From: PVC group bacterium
Lineage (GTDB): Bacteria > Auribacterota > Erginobacteria > Erginobacterales > Erginobacteraceae
NCBI GenBank assembly: GCA_043804695.1
Contig: JAZDIV010000043.1
Coordinates: forward strand, 9,027-73,026
Reading direction: 5' to 3'
Length of the DNA stretch: 64,000 nt
The stretch's first letter is position 1; every line of letters begins with the position of its first letter. Of this stretch, positions 8,622-45,186 are shown one piece after another. The position numbers and the translations under genes are program-made. The notes beneath the pieces are model-generated. The model saw only the letters and a program-made list of their open reading frames with translations, ran no database searches and was not told the origin of the DNA.

Positions 8622-9178
8622 GGCTAATATAATCCGGCATGGTACAAAATGACCGAAATCACGAATCCAAAACAGCGACCGCGAAGCCTTACTATTGAGA
8701 ACATTTGGAAACTGCCATTCTTGATTTATTGAGGTTTAAGGATTTCTCTCTTGAAAACCTTAAGGCCATGATATAGTTCATAACTCTCGCAAATCGGGAT
8801 AATGAGCATTGAATCGAAGATGCCAATATCTAAGCTCTTCTTGCAAGATGAGATAGATTCCATAATTGAGATTTCGAAACGGTATCAAGTGCAAGTAGTA
8901 ATGTCAAGCCGGCACGGGTGGACTGATAGGGTCCTCACCCTTCCTGGTCGGCATCGGAATGTCTGCGTTTTATCACGGGAAAGATGCGAAGACGGAATCT
9001 CACTGGACAGGATACATCACGAAAAATCGCGGGACTTTAAATCTTCATGCAATATCCCATCATTATCATTACCAGGGCATGCAGTTGATTCCTTATTGAT
9101 TACAATTAGTCGGGAAATATCCGTAAACCAACGCGGGTTCATTTTCCAGATCAGTTAACACGATTATACTCCGCAAAG

Positions 9179-37666: not shown

Positions 37667-39409
37667 CTATTCTTCCCTCACGAGTACGTTGAGAACCACC
37701 AACAGGCAGGCCAGGACAAAAGCCATCAACATGGCGATCAGGATTATCCGTGTCCGGGGCGGGCCAACCTTGACCGGATCGGTCTGCGCAGTATAGAGAA
37801 GAACCGTTCCGCTCCGGGAGACGTTCTCCATCGATACCCGGAGGAGCGCCACTTCTTCCGCTTTGGCGGCCAGGGAGGAATGGACCTGGGTCAGGTTCTC
37901 GATGTCACGCTTCTGCCGGGCCAGCTGGCTTTCGCTGGTGAAGACGATCTTCTCCAGCCCGGCGATTTCCCGCCCCACCTCGTCGAGCTTGGCTTTTTTC
38001 GCCGCCAGCTTGACCTCCATCCTGGCCAGTTCTTTTTCACTGGCTTCAAGCTCCTGACGATCCGTGTTGTAGGATTGTTCGTAATATGCCTGCAATGCCT
38101 GGTCCTTATTGACGGCGTTCTGGAGGTTTTTCCTTTGCGACTCCAGGGGGGCGATCTCCCGGGTCAGCTTGCTGACCTCGACCCGCAGGGTCTCCAGTTC
38201 CTGCTCCCCTTTGGAGATCTTGTTCTTCAGCCCGGTTATCTCGCCCGAGAGCCGGATCATTTCTTTCTGTGTCTCTTCATAAATCGGGTTGCTGCTCTCA
38301 GTCTTCATCAGCGGCAGCTGGCCGGTGTCCTTCAAGCCTCCCTGCAGGTAGGTTTCCCAGAGCTTGTCGTCCCCGATCGCCTTGCTGAGGACGATCTTAT
38401 CACTGATCTTTGACAGCTCCTCCTGGAGCTTGGCGTAGGTCGGCTCCAGGCTGAAAAGGCTGGTCCGGGCCTGGAGGGTCTCCCCGGAAATGTCCTCGAT
38501 CTGTTTCTTCTTGATCTTGACCATTATGTACTTGTGATTGAGCTGGCTTGTCTCGTCAAATTCAGCCAGCGTTTGTTCGTTGCTCCTCAAGCTCCGGATG
38601 GTCCGGGCTATCCGTCCGGCCAGGGCGGCTGAGTCCGGCAAGGTGTACCCGGGGTCCTCCGCGAGCTTCCGGGCGAACACCTCGCCGGACCAGGACCCCT
38701 CGATCTCCTGCCCGGTCACGTTTTCCCTCAGTTGCTTCAGAAGCGCCTTCCTGGTGACAACCTGTTCCTCCAGGGAAAGAACCTCCAGGGACAGTTCGGA
38801 ATACAGCTCCTCATTCTGTTCCAGCAACAGTTGTTTTACGGTCAGATCTGCTTTCAGCCTGGCCTCGGTGTACTGATCCTCGTTCTCGATCAGTGACTTG
38901 CTGACCTTCTCGAAGATGTTGGTGGTGAAAGTACCCAGATCATCGACACCGGCCTGATAAATGCCTTTCGTCTTCTGCAGCACAACTTGCGCCCAGCGGT
39001 TGGCCACGGCCATGGAGAGTTCCGGGTCGGAGGTAGTAGCATTCAACGTGACTATCGGCAGGAGCAGTCGGTCCCGGCTCTGGTCGTGCTTCACCGAGGT
39101 CGAGAGCATCTCCTGGAAACGGCGGAAGTCCATATCTTCCCTGATGATGCCATCCTTGACCAGGTCCTGGTATAGATCCCACTTCACCCGGGTGGACTCG
39201 ACCAGGGAGCGGAGGGTCTCGACGGTGAGCGGGGGGATCTCTCCCGTCAGCGTAACTTCAGGCCGCTGAACGCTGATCGCCGCGCTGGCGCTGTACTTGT
39301 TCGAAATCAGCAGCGTAATCGCCGCCGTCAACGCCCCGACCGCCAGGGTGATGATCAGAAGGCGTATCCTGTATTTGTGGAGTATCTTGATAATCCCGAT
39401 CTCATTCAT
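37667..39409 (-). CDS. Polysaccharide chain-length determinant (Wzz/PCP, GumC-like) with long coiled-coil periplasmic domain
   Basis: 580 aa. The N-terminus IRLLIITLAVGALTAAITLLISNKYSASAAISVQRPE is Wzz-domain-like. A long heptad-like middle is followed by a C-terminal TM segment, ILIAMLMAFVLACLLVVLNVLV. GGAGG lies 6 nt upstream of the ATG, and the start makes an ATGA overlap with the upstream stop. Confidence 0.8.
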   Translation of the reverse strand: MNEIGIIKILHKYRIRLLIITLAVGALTAAITLLISNKYSASAAISVQRPEVTLTGEIPPLTVETLRSLVESTRVKWDLYQDLVKDGIIREDMDFRRFQEMLSTSVKHDQSRDRLLLPIVTLNATTSDPELSMAVANRWAQVVLQKTKGIYQAGVDDLGTFTTNIFEKVSKSLIENEDQYTEARLKADLTVKQLLLEQNEELYSELSLEVLSLEEQVVTRKALLKQLRENVTGQEIEGSWSGEVFARKLAEDPGYTLPDSAALAGRIARTIRSLRSNEQTLAEFDETSQLNHKYIMVKIKKKQIEDISGETLQARTSLFSLEPTYAKLQEELSKISDKIVLSKAIGDDKLWETYLQGGLKDTGQLPLMKTESSNPIYEETQKEMIRLSGEITGLKNKISKGEQELETLRVEVSKLTREIAPLESQRKNLQNAVNKDQALQAYYEQSYNTDRQELEASEKELARMEVKLAAKKAKLDEVGREIAGLEKIVFTSESQLARQKRDIENLTQVHSSLAAKAEEVALLRVSMENVSRSGTVLLYTAQTDPVKVGPPRTRIILIAMLMAFVLACLLVVLNVLVREE

Positions 39410-40398
39410 TTTAACCTCCGGTGTCGCGTCTTGACATTGGACATAATTTTAATTAAATCACTGACCTCTTGATCGAGCTTCTTGTCAGATTCTCTTTCTT
39501 CTTCGAAACGTTTAATCGCTTTTCCACAGGCGGTATATGTTATACCTCCCAAAACCTGCCCTAATTCATGTAAATTGCAGTCGGAATAGGTATACCCTAA
39601 ATAGAGAGCGACCTTTTTAGGGATGTTATTTCTTGTTCTTTGCAGGATCGTTTCTCTATCGATCCCGAAATAGTCCGCAACGGCTTCAATAATATCATCC
39701 AGCGTCGGCACCTTCAACAACTGACGATATGAGGGAATTTCAGAACTGATCTTCTTTCCATCCAAACCAGCGAGGGCTTCTTCGACAAATTCTTCACTAC
39801 CTAAAATAGTTCCGGCTTTTATTCCCTCAAATGGATTGTTGACAGAATTATCCCCCTCCACAAAATTCTTGTATAGTACAATAGCCACATTTCTGTCCCG
39901 GGAAAATGTATTTAGAATATCATCTCTCGAAATCCAGGTATCTCTATGAGTCAGGAAATCCCGGTAACTGCTCCAGGGGAACAACTGTGGTTTGCTGACC
40001 ATCCCCGCTCGAACGGGATTGAGATGGATATAGCGACTGACCACGAGAAGATATTGTTCCTTTTCGATCAGAATTCCTTTATACCGTCCCTGCAAAACAT
40101 GACCGATCCGTTTATGCCGGATATTGAAGTAATTCGTATAAGCCACATTGATAAAGTGCATGGACCTGGATAAATTTCCTAACGGGGTCTCCAGGAGCAG
40201 GTGGTAATGATTGGTCATAAAGATATAGCCATGGATCCGAATTCGGAATTTTAAAATTGCATTTTGTAAAATGGTTATAAGTCGACGTCGATCAGCATCT
40301 GCAAGGAAAATCGGTTGCGCCCCGTTTCCACGGGCCGTCACATGATAAAACGCTCCCGGAAATTCTATTCTTAGAGCTCTTCCCATGGCCTGTTTCAT
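39406..40398 (-). CDS. HUH/Y1 transposase of the IS200-like/REP-associated (RAYT-like) type with C-terminal DnaA-domain-IV-like HTH
   Basis: 330 aa. Motifs are GAFYHVTARGN, the HUH motif MTNHYHLLLE, the catalytic-Tyr region SRYIHLNPVRAGMV and C-terminal KKVALYLGYTYSDCNLHELGQVLGGITYTACGKAIKRFEE (Bac_DnaA_C-like). The gene is AT-rich relative to its neighbours and is flanked by inverted 25-nt repeats. Confidence 0.8.
   Translation of the reverse strand: MKQAMGRALRIEFPGAFYHVTARGNGAQPIFLADADRRRLITILQNAILKFRIRIHGYIFMTNHYHLLLETPLGNLSRSMHFINVAYTNYFNIRHKRIGHVLQGRYKGILIEKEQYLLVVSRYIHLNPVRAGMVSKPQLFPWSSYRDFLTHRDTWISRDDILNTFSRDRNVAIVLYKNFVEGDNSVNNPFEGIKAGTILGSEEFVEEALAGLDGKKISSEIPSYRQLLKVPTLDDIIEAVADYFGIDRETILQRTRNNIPKKVALYLGYTYSDCNLHELGQVLGGITYTACGKAIKRFEEERESDKKLDQEVSDLIKIMSNVKTRHRRLK
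39420..39444 (+). repeat. REP-like 25-mer GGTGTCGCGTCTTGACATTGGACAT (copy A, flanks RAYT-like gene)
   Basis: The match to copies at 40440, 44123, 44209, 45085 and 45162 is exact. It overlaps the last codons of the transposase ORF (MSNVKTRH). Confidence 0.9.
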
Positions 40399-40439
40399 TC
40401 TTTGATTAATTATTTATTAAGGCCATGGTATTAAATATT

Positions 40440-40464
40440 ATGTCCAATGTCAAGACGCGACACC
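40440..40464 (-). repeat. REP-like 25-mer (copy B, inverted, other flank of RAYT-like gene)
   Basis: atgtccaatgtcaagacgcgacacc is the exact reverse complement of copy A. It lies 42 nt upstream of the transposase ATG. Confidence 0.9.
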
Positions 40465-41229: not shown

Positions 41230-42406
41230 CGAAGCGCAAAGCCGGGAAGCCCTCCGCCGGGCGTCCCAGATGGCCGGCCCCGAGCCGGTCACCCCGGACG
41301 GGGTGGAGATCATCCCCGTCTGCCAGCCGACCCTGGAGGGGAATGAAAGAAAGTACGTCATCCAGTGCATGGACACGAACTGGATTTCCTCCCGGGGCCG
41401 GTTCGTCGACGAGTTCGAGGAAAAATTCGCCCGCTACTGCGGAGTCCGATTCGGGATCACCACCAACAGCGGCACCACCGCATTGCACCTCGCCCTGGCG
41501 ACGATGGGGATCAAGGAGGGGGACGAGGTGATCATCCCCTCCTTCACGATGATCTCGACCGCCAACGCCATCGCCTACCTCGACGCCGAGCCGGTGGTGG
41601 TCGATGTCGAGCCGCGGACCTGGAACATCGACCCCGACCAAATCGAAGAGAAGATCACCGAAAAGACCCGGGCCATCATCCCCATACATACCTACGGACA
41701 TCCGGCCGATATGGACCGCCTCCAGGAAATCGCCGACAAGCACGGGCTGGCTATTGTCGAGGACGCCGCCGAGGCTCATGGCGCCGAGTACAAGGGGCGC
41801 CGAGTCGGGAGCTTCGGCCAGATGGCGTCCTTCAGCTTTTACGCCAACAAGATCATCACCACCGGCGAGGGGGGGATGATCGTCACCGACGATCCAGAAC
41901 GGGCGGCCCTTCTTCAGACCATGCGCAACTACGGGTTCACCCAGGAGAGGCATTTCTGGCACAAGGTGATGGGTTTCAGCTACCGGATGACCAACCTCCA
42001 GGCGGCGATCGGGCTCGGCCAGTTCGAGCGGATCGACCAGCTCCTGGGAGCGCGCCGGGAGAACGCCCGGCTCTATAACGAGCTGCTGAAAAACGTCCCC
42101 GGGATAACCACCCCCCCGGAGTCCGAAGACGTCAAGTCAGTTTACTGGATGTACGGGGTGCTGGTGGAAGACAATTTCGGCATCTCCAAGGATCAGCTCC
42201 GTCAGAAGCTGGCCGACCACGGCATCGAGACCCGTTCCTTCTTCATCCCCATCCACCTCCAGCCGATCTACTCCTACCTCATCAGCGATGACTACCCGGT
42301 CTCGGAAGAACTGGGGCGGAAAGGATTCTACCTCCCTTCCGCCAGCAGCCTTCAGCCCCACCAGATCGAGTTTATCGTCAACATCATCCGCAACGCGCGG
42401 CCGTAA
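41207..42406 (+). CDS. DegT/DnrJ/EryC1/StrS-family sugar aminotransferase (PLP-dependent)
   Basis: Motifs are QPTLEGNERKYVIQCMDTNWISSRGRFVDEFEEKF, NSGTTALHLAL and SFYANKIITTGEGGMIVTDD (PLP lysine region). The start is either ATG 41207 (23-nt overlap with the GT2 gene) or ATG 41270. Confidence 0.85.
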   Translation: MTAVKRFDEAQSREALRRASQMAGPEPVTPDGVEIIPVCQPTLEGNERKYVIQCMDTNWISSRGRFVDEFEEKFARYCGVRFGITTNSGTTALHLALATMGIKEGDEVIIPSFTMISTANAIAYLDAEPVVVDVEPRTWNIDPDQIEEKITEKTRAIIPIHTYGHPADMDRLQEIADKHGLAIVEDAAEAHGAEYKGRRVGSFGQMASFSFYANKIITTGEGGMIVTDDPERAALLQTMRNYGFTQERHFWHKVMGFSYRMTNLQAAIGLGQFERIDQLLGARRENARLYNELLKNVPGITTPPESEDVKSVYWMYGVLVEDNFGISKDQLRQKLADHGIETRSFFIPIHLQPIYSYLISDDYPVSEELGRKGFYLPSASSLQPHQIEFIVNIIRNARP

Positions 42407-42414
42407 CCCCCTCC

Positions 42415-42625
42415 GGATTCAGACAGGATTAACCCGATTTATTCATAAATCGGGTTAGTTTTGAACAATGCCAGAGATAGCGTGGATAGTAATTATTTAT
42501 TGATCGTATTATACTCTGGTCCAGGCACTTGTTAATTTCAATCTGATATTATTTGCATCATTGCCCGTAGAATTAAAGCGTCGGCTGATCGGGGAGGGAA
42601 AAACAGAGTGCTGCAGGCTCCTGAA
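42415..42625 (-). repeat. Copy 2 of the ~215-bp dispersed repeat (inverted relative to 2459..2690)
   Basis: See copy 1. The hairpin here is the shorter aacccgatttat-tc-ataaatcgggtt (42431..42456). TATAAT is on the minus strand at 42513..42508. Confidence 0.85.
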
Positions 42626-42652
42626 TTCTGGCTCCTGAGTAATTACTATTAT

Positions 42653-42703
42653 TGTAGTTGTGTAGTTGTAGTTGTAAAATCCTGCAAATCCTGTAATCCT
42701 GTC
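42653..42703. repeat. Two adjacent micro-tandem arrays (TGTAGT-type x~3.5, then (A)AATCCTGY x3) forming the 5' leader of the radical SAM gene
   Basis: The sequence is ttgtagttgtgtagttgtagttgta followed by aaatcctgc aaatcctgt aatcctgtc, ending 4 nt before ATG 42708. No Shine-Dalgarno-like purine run is present. Confidence 0.8.
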
Positions 42704-42707
42704 TGAT

Positions 42708-44123
42708 ATGAACGTCCTGTTGATCAATCCTCCCTTCGATCCGGAGGAATCGGTCGGGGAGAGCAGATCGGTCCGTTTTGTCCTCAACATCACGCCCCCT
42801 TTAGGGCTGGCTTACCTGGGAGCGGTTTTGGAGCGGGCGGGACACCAGGTCCGGATCGTCGATTACACCGCCCGCTCCCCCTATCCTCCCCTCCCCAAGA
42901 TTATTCAGGAGTTCGAGCCGAACTTAATCGGCCTGACCGCTACCACCCCCTCATTTGAGAGCGCCTGCCGTCTGACCCGGGAACTCCGTAAACTCCGCCC
43001 CGGCACCCCTCTTATGCTGGGGGGCGCCCACGTCACCTGCGCCCCAGAATCGGCAATGAAGAGCGGACTTTTCCAGGCTGGTGTGCTCGGCGAGGGGGAG
43101 GAGACGGTGGTCGAGCTGGCGAAGCATCTGGAAGATGGACGTTTCGTCAATCTTCATCGCGTGTCGGGCATCATTTTCTCCGAGGACGGGGATTGGCGCC
43201 GGACTCCCCCCCGTCCTTTTATCCTGGACCTCGACTCCCTCCCCTTCCCCGCCTATCACCTCCTCCCACCTTTGAGATACTACCACCCGACACCGGCATC
43301 CTACCGGCAGCTCCCGGTCGGGATCCTGATGACCAGCCGGGGCTGTCCTTTCAAGTGTACTTTCTGCGACCGGGCTATCTTCGGCAACACCACTCGCTTT
43401 CACAACACGCAAAGAGTGCTGGACGAGGTTGAGTGGATGCTCAATGAAGTGGGGGCGAGAGAGATTCGCTTCTTCGACGACACTTTTACACTAAAACGGG
43501 AACGGGCGGCCGGGATCTGCGACGGAATCCTGGAACGGGGACTGAAGTTCCCCTGGACCTGCCTGACCGCCGTCAGGGCGGTCACCCCGGAACTGCTCCG
43601 TAAAATGAAAGCGGCCGGCTGCTGGCAGGTCCTCTATGGGTTGGAGTCCGGCGACGACCGGATGCTTAAGCTATTGGGAAAGGGGAACACCGTCGAAGAG
43701 AACCTCAACGCCATCCGGTGGGCCAGGGAAGCAGGGCTGGAGGTGCGGGGGGACTTCATCGTGGGAACACCGGGGGAGACGATGGAGAGCCTGGAGCGAA
43801 CGCTCCGCTTTACCTTGGAGACGGGCCTTGATTACGCCCATTTCAACAAGTTCACGCCCTTCCCCGGGACCGAACTCTACCACCGGCTGGTGGCGGATGG
43901 GTACTCCTTCGACTTCACTCGGGGATGCAGCATCCTCGATCACGGGGCGCTCCTCTTTGTTCCGAAGTCACTCGACCGGGAGGAGTACCGCCGCTGGCTC
44001 GACCGGGCCTTCAAGAAATTCTACCTGCGCCCTTCCCACATCCTAAAGCGGCTGATGGCGATCCGGACCTGGACCCAGCTTCGGGGGCAGGCCCGGGGCG
44101 CCTTCGCCATCGCCAGTCTATAG
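42708..44123 (+). CDS. B12-binding-domain (class B) radical SAM enzyme
   Basis: 471 aa. The N-terminus MNVLLINPPFD...PPLGLAYLGAVLERAGHQVRIVDY is cobalamin-binding-domain-like, and TSRGCPFKCTFCD provides the CxxxCxxC motif. Confidence 0.85.
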   Translation: MNVLLINPPFDPEESVGESRSVRFVLNITPPLGLAYLGAVLERAGHQVRIVDYTARSPYPPLPKIIQEFEPNLIGLTATTPSFESACRLTRELRKLRPGTPLMLGGAHVTCAPESAMKSGLFQAGVLGEGEETVVELAKHLEDGRFVNLHRVSGIIFSEDGDWRRTPPRPFILDLDSLPFPAYHLLPPLRYYHPTPASYRQLPVGILMTSRGCPFKCTFCDRAIFGNTTRFHNTQRVLDEVEWMLNEVGAREIRFFDDTFTLKRERAAGICDGILERGLKFPWTCLTAVRAVTPELLRKMKAAGCWQVLYGLESGDDRMLKLLGKGNTVEENLNAIRWAREAGLEVRGDFIVGTPGETMESLERTLRFTLETGLDYAHFNKFTPFPGTELYHRLVADGYSFDFTRGCSILDHGALLFVPKSLDREEYRRWLDRAFKKFYLRPSHILKRLMAIRTWTQLRGQARGAFAIASL

Positions 44124-44233
44124 GTGTCGCGTCTTGACATTGGACATTACTTTCCACCTTCAATTTTATCCGATAGAATATGAATCAAAACCTGGAAAAT
44201 ATCTTGTAATGTCCAATGTCAAGACGCGACACC
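44123..44233. repeat. Inverted doublet of the REP-like 25/28-mer (copies C and D) filling a convergent intergenic gap
   Basis: Copy C at 44123..44150 and copy D at 44206..44233 are exact inverted copies (ggtgtcgcgtcttgacattggacattac) with a 55-nt spacer. The doublet starts at the last base of the radical SAM TAG and ends 4 nt before the murB stop. Confidence 0.9.
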
Positions 44234-44237
44234 TATA

Positions 44238-45074
44238 TTATCGCCAGATTATTAACTCCAATTCCAGATCAATTCCGGATCTGTCTTTGACCTTTCTCCG
44301 GGCCAGTTGAATCAATTCTTCTACTTCAGCGAACCGGGCGGAACCCCGGTTGACGATAATGTTGGCGTGCTTATCCGATATCTGGGCGTCCCCGATCCTT
44401 TTCCCTTTCAATCCCGCCGCCTCAATCAACCGTCCGGCGTAATCACCGGCAGGATTCTTGAAGACCGACCCGGCGCTGGGGTACTCGAGCGGGAGGAACT
44501 TTTTTCTTTGGCTGAGAACGTCCTTCATCTCTGATTGAATCGCGACCGGATCCCCGGGACAAAGGCTGAACTCCACCTCCAGGATCACTCCCCCCTCCTT
44601 TTGAAAACGGCTGGAACGGTAACCAAACCGGCATTGATCGGCTTTCATCTCTCTCTCCCCGACGCAGGGCTGATGGACCCGGACCCTGCGGACAACCCCG
44701 GAGACCTCCTCCCCTCTCCAGCCGGCGTTCATCACCGCCGCCCCCCCGACCGTCCCCGGAATGCCGGCCGCGAACTCCAGCCCCGATAACCCCCTCTCCG
44801 CCGCCGCCTGGGCGAGCCGGGTTAACGCCATCCCGGCCGGTGCCGTCACCCGGGTCCCCTGAAAGGCCAGATCTTCGGGCCGCCATTTCGGTTTAATGAC
44901 AACGCCTTCCACTCCCCGATCGTCCGCCAGCAGGTTGGTTCCTCCTCCCAGGATCCGGAAAGAGAGGTTTCTTTCGCTCAGCAGATCGAGGCACCTGATG
45001 AGATTGTCTCTGTCGGCGGGGATGATGAAGATCTCCACCGGCCCGCCGATGGCGAGGGATGTATGCTTCCGCAT
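44238..45074 (-). CDS. murB: UDP-N-acetylenolpyruvoylglucosamine reductase (MurB)
   Basis: Motifs are HTSLAIGGPVEIF, ILGGGTNLL, GLEFAAGIPGTVGGAAVMNAG and SAGSVFKNP...AGLKGKRIGDAQISDKHANIIVN. The track start at 45140 reads through a REP copy (SNVQCQDATPG), so I prefer ATG 45074 (MRKHTSLAIGG). Confidence 0.85.
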   Translation of the reverse strand: MRKHTSLAIGGPVEIFIIPADRDNLIRCLDLLSERNLSFRILGGGTNLLADDRGVEGVVIKPKWRPEDLAFQGTRVTAPAGMALTRLAQAAAERGLSGLEFAAGIPGTVGGAAVMNAGWRGEEVSGVVRRVRVHQPCVGEREMKADQCRFGYRSSRFQKEGGVILEVEFSLCPGDPVAIQSEMKDVLSQRKKFLPLEYPSAGSVFKNPAGDYAGRLIEAAGLKGKRIGDAQISDKHANIIVNRGSARFAEVEELIQLARRKVKDRSGIDLELELIIWR

Positions 45075-45084
45075 CTCCTCGCCC

Positions 45085-45186
45085 GGTGTCGCGTCTTGAC
45101 ATTGGACATTACTTAAGATGCTTTGTATATCTTTGCTCATGAGTACCTATTTGAAGCGGTAATGTCCAATGTCAAGACGCGACACC
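45085..45186. repeat. Inverted doublet of the REP-like 25/28-mer (copies E and F) at the junction of two co-directional genes
   Basis: Copy E at 45085..45112 and copy F at 45159..45186 are exact inverted copies with a 46-nt spacer. Copy F encodes the last residues (VSRLDIGHY) of 45147..46895, and copy E lies in the apparent 5' extension of murB. Confidence 0.9.

Follow-up and report, generated by a model that had tools for sequence, protein, structure and literature searches.

How does a gene for a transposase-like protein come to sit, as a single copy, between perfect inverted repeats whose gene-less copies recur across the same bacterial genome? This question is raised by a 64,000-nucleotide stretch of DNA (the window; positions 9,027 to 73,026 of contig JAZDIV010000043.1, GenBank assembly GCA_043804695.1) from a PVC group bacterium of the Erginobacteraceae, whose assembly (G000, the source genome) comprises 2.97 Mb in 155 contigs and is 88% complete. 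The gene lies in the intergenic region that separates two divergent genes, one Wzz-like and the other for a GT2 glycosyltransferase, and forms, with its repeats, a 1,045-bp unit at 39420-40464. This unit is a TIRtron, a published class defined as RAYT-like genes between terminal inverted repeats (TIRs) (Di Nocera, De Gregorio & Rocco, 2013, BMC Genomics 14:522; PMC3733652), and it matches that definition point for point. We consider it highly probable that its gene encodes a resident TIRYT, a RAYT-like HUH/Y1 enzyme of TnpAREP subgroup 2.1.2, and that the repeats, with arms of 28 bp, are mobilised by it in trans. The parts of the unit are:

39420..40464, minus strand: whole TIRtron (TIR, TIRYT gene and TIR), 1,045 bp
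39420..39447, plus strand: Wzz-proximal TIR, 28 nt perfect, with a 25-mer core at 39420-39444
40437..40464, minus strand: GT2-proximal TIR, 28 nt perfect, with a 25-mer core at 40440-40464
39406..40398, minus strand: TIRYT gene (P0001), 330 amino acids

The protein combines a predicted HUH/Y1 nuclease with a DnaA-like tail

A first-pass annotation made from the sequence alone had described the 330-residue protein as an HUH/Y1 enzyme of the RAYT/IS200 kind with a tail resembling the C terminus of DnaA, and both halves of this description held up in profile and structure searches. Two domains were delimited:

39970..40371, minus strand: HUH/Y1 nuclease core, residues ~10-143, with HUH = H64-Y-H66 and Y123 in YIHLNPV
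39439..39705, minus strand: DnaA-domain-IV-like helix-turn-helix (HTH), residues ~232-320, C-terminal

The protein carries the motifs GAFYHVTARG, NHYHLL and YIHLNPV and matches Pfam Y1_Tnp at residues 18-125 (E=4.2e-8), while residues 234-296 match Pfam Bac_DnaA_C at 36.4 bits, above the cut-off of 31.5 bits. Residues 232-320 align with domain IV of E. coli DnaA (1J1V, E=4.5e-6; phmmer against PDB), and a match to the full-length DnaA profile TIGR00362 (41.8 bits against a cut-off of 343.9) is limited to the last ~90 residues. When the entire protein was compared with PDB by phmmer, DnaA chains alone were returned, and the N-terminal domain was matched through a fold search. In an AlphaFold2 model computed from an alignment of the TIRYT with ten homologs (mean pLDDT 77.9), Foldseek placed the core on 4ER8, a REP-associated tyrosine transposase (TMt 0.74, root-mean-square deviation 2.5 A, 153 columns), and the tail on 1J1V (TMt 0.90, 1.3 A, 93 columns); the next matches were IS608 and ISDra2 TnpA (2A6O, 2XMA and others). 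Together, the profile matches, the sequence alignment and the fold matches of the model show that both domains, HUH/Y1 and DnaA-IV-like, are real.

H64, H66 and Y123 are invariant in the alignment with the ten homologs, which are 34-61% identical, and this conservation argues for retained catalysis. In the tail, the recognition stretch of DnaA, GGRDHTTVLHA, corresponds to GGITYTACGKA. Because the two differ, a different DNA target would be expected for the HTH.

This architecture has a place in the published scheme. Subgroup 2.1.2 of TnpAREP subclass 2.1 comprises long Y1 proteins with a Bac_DnaA_C-like C terminus, and subclass 2.1, which has no REP-like sequence near its genes, is equated by its authors with the TIRYTs (Quentin, Siguier, Chandler & Fichant, 2018, BMC Genomics 19:475; PMC6006769). 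Our protein shares the tail and the lack of an adjoining REP, and its assignment to 2.1.2, as read from the sequence, rests on domain architecture together with that published equation. It also matches the NCBIfam model NF047646 (REP_Tyr_transpos; E=2.4e-20), at 72.9 bits and thus under the equivalog cut-off of 80 bits.

The repeats are terminal inverted repeats that fold in pairs

The 25-mer GGTGTCGCGTCTTGACATTGGACAT occurs six times exactly in the window, at 39420(+), 40440(-), 44123(+), 44209(-), 45085(+) and 45162(-), where none would be expected by chance (100 shuffles). The first-pass annotation had found the pair that brackets the gene and the four further copies in two inverted doublets; the arms of the gene-bearing unit prove longer than it had proposed, with 28 nt perfect and 36 nt at 92% complementarity according to a repeat finder. 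Nor are the copies confined to the window. The genome holds 14, 12 of them exact and two with two mismatches, on five contigs (C27, C36, C43, C65 and C141), arranged as solos (two on C27, one on C36), doublets (in the window and on C65) and a triplet (C141). The two doublets of the window are:

44123..44233, unstranded: gene-less doublet 1, 111 bp, with a 61-nt spacer of 30% GC, between the convergent radical-SAM and murB genes
45085..45186, unstranded: gene-less doublet 2, 102 bp, with a 52-nt spacer of 35% GC, at the junction of a 582-residue membrane-protein gene and murB

Each TIR has two parts, an 11-nt head and, after it, the heptamer pair TTGACAT TGGACAT in tandem. The head reads GGTGTCGCGTC instead of GGGGTCA, and GGTGTCGC agrees at 6/8 positions with GGGGWSAS, a motif that many, though not all, TIRtron TIRs share (PMC3733652). 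At 14 of 19 positions the window TIR aligns with GGGGTCAGGTCTTGAAATA of a homolog, and TIRs of other clades likewise depart from GGGGWSAS (GGTGCCGG and GGGGACGG, for example). The inner half of a metagenome variant reads TTGACAT TTGACAT, and tandem structure recurs in a set of 39 TIRs: when 7-mers are compared at an offset of 7-8 nt, the best self-match has a mean of 5.0 (shuffles, 3.3), and 12 of the 39 reach at least 6/7, although some of these TIRs are kin and hence not fully independent. Among 48 non-redundant sites, 11 have ATA immediately before the head; base by base, A stands at -3 in 26, T at -2 in 22 and A at -1 in 22.

Single arms do not form hairpins. As single-stranded DNA (ssDNA), the 28-mer and its complement are no stabler than shuffles (z -0.4 and -0.3), which agrees with the earlier observation that the repeat is not a palindrome, and 13 of 14 other TIRs, from homologs and from other families of this genome, also fold no better than shuffles; the sole exception among the sixteen folded belongs to a homolog. 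We found neither a GTAG/REP tag nor a TTATCCACA-like (DnaA) box in the repeat, and the published TIRs do not resemble a DnaA box either (PMC6006769). With no fold of their own, the single repeats qualify as terminal inverted repeats and not as REP palindromes; a REP-like hairpin within an arm was ruled out as a candidate by this folding at the level of shuffles. Doublets, as ssDNA, fold into stems of 28-31 bp with z of about -12 to -13. The arms of doublet 1 are 32 nt perfect when the flanking TATA is counted, giving a DNA hairpin of -35.9 kcal/mol (z -13); those of doublet 2 are 29 nt (z -11.8).

The arms are thus alike, and what lies between them is not. We detected no similarity among the doublet spacers (61, 52 and 80 nt; 30-35% GC), nor between them and the ends of the gene-bearing unit, and doublets of the same TIR clade in G003, which represents another genus of the same family, again have identical arms and unrelated spacers. 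As the first-pass annotation had held, the doublets are not deletion derivatives of the gene-bearing unit: this candidate is excluded by spacers unlike its subterminal sequence. No consistent target-site duplication accompanies the TIR copies that we examined. TATA flanks both sides at doublet 1 only and is a self-complementary tetramer. The outermost TIR is accompanied by a second copy at a distance of 9-10 nt, both in G003 and on C141.

At least three further TIR families, with GGGGTCA heads, inhabit the genome. Family B, GGGGTCAAATCTTTCCTCTTGACAAT, has ~14 copies (C19, C67, C78, C81, C100, C105 and C151), located alongside a TIRYT paralog and at the ends of contigs. Family C (C20, C28, C46, C95 and C100) forms doublets of 53-62 bp, those on C95 and C46 being nearly identical, and family D consists of one 130-bp doublet unit in opposite orientations at C29:6507-6637 and C69:2901-3029. 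In families C and D, unlike the window TIR clade, the doublets have clearly arisen by copying of a single unit.

The gene is probably an old resident, and the repeats follow it

Of 41 related genomes, 33 encode members of the TIRYT protein family, a single genome having as many as 21 paralogs. In the first set of 11 loci, the gene always lies between inverted repeats of 22-37 nt, which have a GGGGTCA or GGGTCA head at ten loci, and the repeat of the G003 homolog (59% identity) begins with GGTGTCGCGTCTTGACATT, as in the window. With 40 more loci included, 45 of 53 homologous genes have flanking TIRs, whose heads vary by clade: GGGGTCARRYC, GGGTCACACCC, GGGGACG.., GGTGCCGGTCA and GGTGTCGCGTC. 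At two loci, L154 (G011:C3) and L156 (G013:C36), each flank of the TIRYT is itself a 53-62-nt palindrome, GGGACGGTGTCAAATTGTTAAGTT/GAACTTAACAATTTGACACCGTCCC, so that the gene is bracketed by doublets and not by single TIRs. More widely, E<=1e-20 is reached by over 7,300 protein clusters, almost all of which combine PF08299 with PF01797; their sources name them 'RayT' or 'transposase'. One protein, 61% identical, comes from a metagenome-assembled genome of Candidatus Auribacterota, and a search of genome contigs with the TIRYT protein returned only four distant loci, at 29-33% identity. The source genome has a single full-length copy, its paralogs being at most 33% identical.

G003 carries its 59%-identical gene directly upstream of the wzz ortholog, in the same divergent wzz/GT2 intergenic region. 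The TIRYT has diverged like its neighbours there (wzz ortholog 62% and MurB 57% identical), the flanks on the GT2 side are homologous in the two genomes (TGTCAA..AAAATA/GGTGTC), and the 19-nt TIR head is identical in G003 despite 59% protein identity. Genomes of the family that have no gene at this site retain traces of the repeat. G004 has a solo TIR (23/25 identical; L113, G004:C26 ~13789) that forms TTGACA-16-TATAAT toward wzz and, on the other strand, supplies the ATG of the GT2 gene (MSRHDT..); G001 (L112, G001:C31) has a decayed TIR, GTCTCGCGTCTTGACA; and in G002, G005 and G006 a CTTGACA -35 box alone remains (loci L111, L115 and L117). Four of six genomes (G000, G001, G002 and G006) share a spacing of 19-20 nt to the divergent TGTCAA. 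The simplest reading of these sequences is that the wzz/GT2 site received an old insertion and that some lineages later lost the gene.

In the window, a promoter-like TTGACA-17-TACCAT (40453..40425, minus strand) faces the TIRYT gene, with its -35 box within the GT2-proximal TIR. Transcription of the TIRYT gene, and of the Wzz-like gene downstream of it, is most likely driven by this inward-facing -35 box. In this bacterial family, the promoter of wzz seems to derive from a TIR.

The dispersed repeats differ from genome to genome. Counted at up to two mismatches, the 19-nt head has 14 copies in G000 and 18 in G003, both of which have the cognate gene, against 1, 2, 0, 0, 0, 0 and 0 in seven genomes of the family that do not. 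The TIR sites differ between G000 and G003; these differing sites, together with a copy number that follows the gene, indicate recent spread. A stable single-copy gene with dependent gene-less repeats is the RAYT/REPIN pattern.

Public metagenome contigs contain no match to the exact 25-mer. The 18-nt head occurs on 72 such contigs (95 sites), only four of which carry a full gene (61% identical); in one 2016 biofilm-metagenome run 9% of words were found, in contigs only, where empty sites and rare junctions are invisible. Several of these metagenome loci (L066, L071, L078, L089 and others) show a larger multi-copy unit, cttaaaacaatg/GGTGTCGCGTCTTGACATTTGACTTAAGGGATGGGGGATAGGGG, as direct repeats 1-8 kb apart per contig, and both flanks of this unit are conserved.

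Repeat copies supply the starts and stops of host genes

TIR copies often lie on gene boundaries, beginning with those of the unit itself. The minus strand of the Wzz-proximal TIR encodes the final TIRYT residues MSNVKTRH (..IMSNVKTRH-RRLK*), and the TGA stop of the gene overlaps the ATG of the Wzz-like gene (ATGA; tcat at 39406-39409), both as noted in the first pass; overlap of a TIR with the 3' end of a TIRYT gene is known from other TIRtrons (PMC3733652).

Doublet 2 provides the last 12 codons and stop of the 582-residue membrane-protein gene as well as the ATG and first 19 codons of murB (44238-45140), a normally essential gene. MurB proteins of relatives have their own, unrelated N-terminal sequence upstream of the conserved EE(L/M)(K/R)KHTS; the murB junction is native sequence without a TIR in six related genomes, G001 and four others compared in detail among them, and the murB contig of G003 likewise has no TIR. 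The spacer of doublet 2 might be regarded as a remnant of the ancestral murB start, and the resemblance is weak (MSKDIQSILS against MKNFKEICISS in G001). The radical-SAM gene owes the last letter of its TAG stop to the first G of doublet 1.

The outer arms of the two doublets (44123-45186) form a heads-out inverted pair around murB, 1,064 bp long against 1,045 bp for the TIRtron. We considered and rejected the idea that murB travels within a composite element: the gene is probably no such cargo, because G001 keeps the same ancestral upstream neighbour of murB. The gene downstream of murB differs in G001.

Elsewhere in the genome, the junction of pgk and tpiA coincides with a TIR triplet (C141:29485-29649). 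The first copy of the triplet provides the last four codons and stop of pgk (GGT GTC GCG TCT TGA; GVAS*), and its third the ATG and first six codons of tpiA (ATG TCA AGA CGC GAC ACC; MSRRDT). On C65, GVAS* ends a TPR gene and a diverged MSRRDT copy starts a pabB-like gene. On C27, ATGTCCAATGTC.. (MSNVKTRH) starts a membrane-protein gene, and C27:21205-24448 holds two tandem paralogous membrane-protein genes, resembling the gene upstream of murB, with a solo TIR in each; in the other paralog the TIR lies in frame in an internal loop (..YVQCQDATP..).

The sequence of the repeat is suited to such positions. In the outward direction, through the head, a TIR contains two ATGs and no stop in any of the three frames; in the inward direction, from the head, one frame yields GVAS-stop. 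Hence copies persist on gene boundaries, to which they contribute starts and stops.

A proposed resident nuclease acting in trans and the alternatives to it

We propose that the TIRYT is a long-resident ssDNA nuclease-ligase which, like RAYTs, would copy or move its own TIR units in trans and would not travel as an insertion sequence. Recognition would be bipartite, through a conserved head and a clade-specific inner half. The head (GGTGTCGCGTC here; GGGGTCARRYC in most relatives, often after ATA) would be the nick site of the HUH core, where Tyr123, by analogy with TnpAREP and IS608 TnpA, would cut ssDNA and attach to the 5' phosphate. The HTH of DnaA is a duplex binder, and the two tandem 7-8-nt subrepeats (TTGACAT TGGACAT) could be the duplex address of the corresponding tail. 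That duplex may come from double-stranded DNA or from a two-arm stem on the lagging-strand template: paired on ssDNA, the arms of a doublet would form a 28-31-bp stem offering a duplex to the HTH and both cut sites at its base. Replication-fork targeting has been proposed as the role of the 2.1.2 tail (PMC6006769); the tandem subrepeats in the inner half of the TIR point instead to the TIR as the probable target of the HTH.

Several observations weigh against this account. The gene is 16-19 GC points under its flanks, which is unexpected for a very old resident. The TIR-containing genes are no longer than their relatives, as simple insertion would predict them to be. Identical arms with unrelated spacers do not fit simple copying of doublets as units, and a hot spot could also account for occupancy of the same site in two genera. 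Copy numbers are minimum values, given an assembly that is 88% complete and in 155 contigs, and in the literature we found no biochemical study of any TIRYT, nor later functional work. The objection from GC content is tempered by homologs. The gene and unit are at ~41-42% GC and their flanks at ~58-62%, as the AT-richness reported in the first pass implied, and TIRYT genes fall below both flanks in 11 of 12 loci, so that low GC appears to be a trait of the TIRYT family. Across the 12 TIRYT loci compared (L015-L026, L051, L054), the gene lies 3-19 GC points under at least one flank in every case, whatever the GC of the host. A further low-GC stretch of the window, 300 bp at ~41% GC between aminotransferase and radical-SAM genes (42406-42708), contains no TIR copy.

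With regard to the spacers, single arms may be the unit that is moved, or filler DNA may be captured per event. The first of these ideas extends to an unlikely alternative, in which the TIRYT would be a resident 'boundary writer' and not a selfish transposase, with a bipartite site, single-TIR placement and modules used by the host. Single 25-28-nt TIR modules, and not fixed doublets, would be set at or over gene boundaries, sometimes overwriting resident sequence with its length unchanged, and would act as portable -35 boxes, starts (MSNVKTRH, MSRRDT) and stops (GVAS*) for wzz, murB, pgk and tpiA. If true, this would be a natural, sequence-addressed system for ssDNA insertion or replacement with a programmable duplex address.

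It is doubtful, to a greater degree, that the locus is an active autonomous insertion sequence moving as a whole 1,045-bp unit, with the doublets as MITE-like deletion derivatives. The anatomy would suit it (TIRs, a transposase whose 3' end runs into one TIR and a promoter in the other), as would the low GC of the unit relative to the host; doublets of two other TIR families are one unit copied to different loci, and family B stands at several contig ends, as multi-copy elements do. However, the genome has one full copy only, the same site is filled in another genus with host-like divergence, the doublet spacers are related neither to subterminal sequence nor to each other, and there is no consistent target-site duplication.

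We attach little probability to a domesticated DNA-binding system that mobilises nothing today, in which the HTH would bind TIRs as promoter or boundary modules and the scattered TIRs would be its regulon. The consensus -35 box in the TIR, the TTGACA-16-TATAAT that the solo TIR of G004 forms before wzz, and the survival of the -35 part in G001, G002, G005 and G006 at the same spacing to the divergent -35 speak for such a system, and TIRs do lie at gene boundaries, including pgk/tpiA and murB, around a long-resident gene. Yet homologs of 34-61% identity all keep the HUH histidines and the tyrosine, TIR sites differ between G000 and G003 while copy number follows the gene, and many copies face away from coding regions or lie within them, where a -35 box is of no obvious use.

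A classical REPtron, a RAYT with REP/BIME palindromes acting on REP hairpins as E. coli TnpAREP does, is hardly credible: its top structural match (TnpAREP 4ER8), the REP_Tyr_transpos E value of 2.4e-20, the 'RayT' names given to homologs and the BIME-like dimers and clusters are outweighed by single repeats without a hairpin (z -0.4) or GTAG/REP tag, by 72.9 bits against a cut-off of 80, and by an HTH domain that is absent from the REP-associated TnpAREP subclasses (PMC6006769). The label 'REPtron-like' in the first-pass annotation was therefore right about the enzyme family and misplaced as a name for the element, because there is no REP hairpin and the equivalog score is below its cut-off. 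None of the outcomes that the annotation had named as refuting it (a repeat restricted to the window, no DnaA-like fold in the tail, catalytic residues that vary among homologs) was observed.

Our preferred reading, a resident TIRYT that mobilises its repeats in trans, bears on elements that are very common (more than 7,300 clusters, up to 21 paralogs per genome in this lineage), none of which is known to have been studied at the bench. The locus is a clean test case, with an intact gene, perfect 28-bp arms and related genomes with and without the gene, and it provides a natural head variant (GGTGTCGCGTC, against GGGGTCA) conserved across ~40% protein divergence. It could reveal how an HUH nuclease with an added duplex-binding domain chooses its sites, and how repeats turn into promoters and into start and stop codons; here, TIR copies have remodelled the ends of the essential genes murB, pgk and tpiA. 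Its interest is that of a case-specific natural history and not of a new kind of element.

Comparison with known systems

The detectable sequence similarity and the fold of the tail relate the protein to DnaA domain IV (1J1V), and DnaA domains I-III, including the AAA+ module, are absent from the TIRYT.

With the IS200/IS605 family, represented by IS608 and ISDra2 TnpA, the unit shares the HUH/Y1 fold and the lack of a regular target-site duplication. IS200/IS605 elements have different subterminal hairpins at their two ends, both on one strand, mostly occur in several copies and frequently include tnpB, whereas the window unit has TIRs without hairpins, is present in one copy and has no tnpB among the open reading frames found at the unit.

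The likeness to E. coli TnpAREP (4ER8) and the Pseudomonas RAYT-REPIN systems is closer. It extends to the catalytic fold, a single-copy resident gene flanked by its own repeat, gene-less inverted doublets with long ssDNA hairpins, and a repeat abundance tied to the cognate gene. In REPINs the whole unit is copied. Here, in contrast, the doublet spacers are unrelated, the repeat is non-palindromic and the protein has an extra domain of the duplex-DNA-binding kind.

With TIRtrons and TIRYTs the agreement covers the Y1 gene, TIRs that are not REPs, overlap of a TIR with the 3' end of the gene, and dispersed singles, dimers and groups, the published TIR families being moderately abundant as single, dimeric and grouped copies (PMC3733652). 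It also covers the presence of several TIRYT/TIR sets per genome, with at least four TIR families here. The three points that the first-pass annotation had singled out as unusual, namely a non-palindromic repeat behaving as a terminal inverted repeat, BIME-like doublets and a DnaA-type domain in the enzyme, are all part of the published definition (PMC3733652, PMC6006769). The differences are the head, GGTGTCGC, and the host, an uncultured lineage outside the coverage of the 2013 survey. What this locus adds to the class is retention at the same site, a copy number that follows the gene, tandem subrepeats in the TIR and the supply of gene ends.

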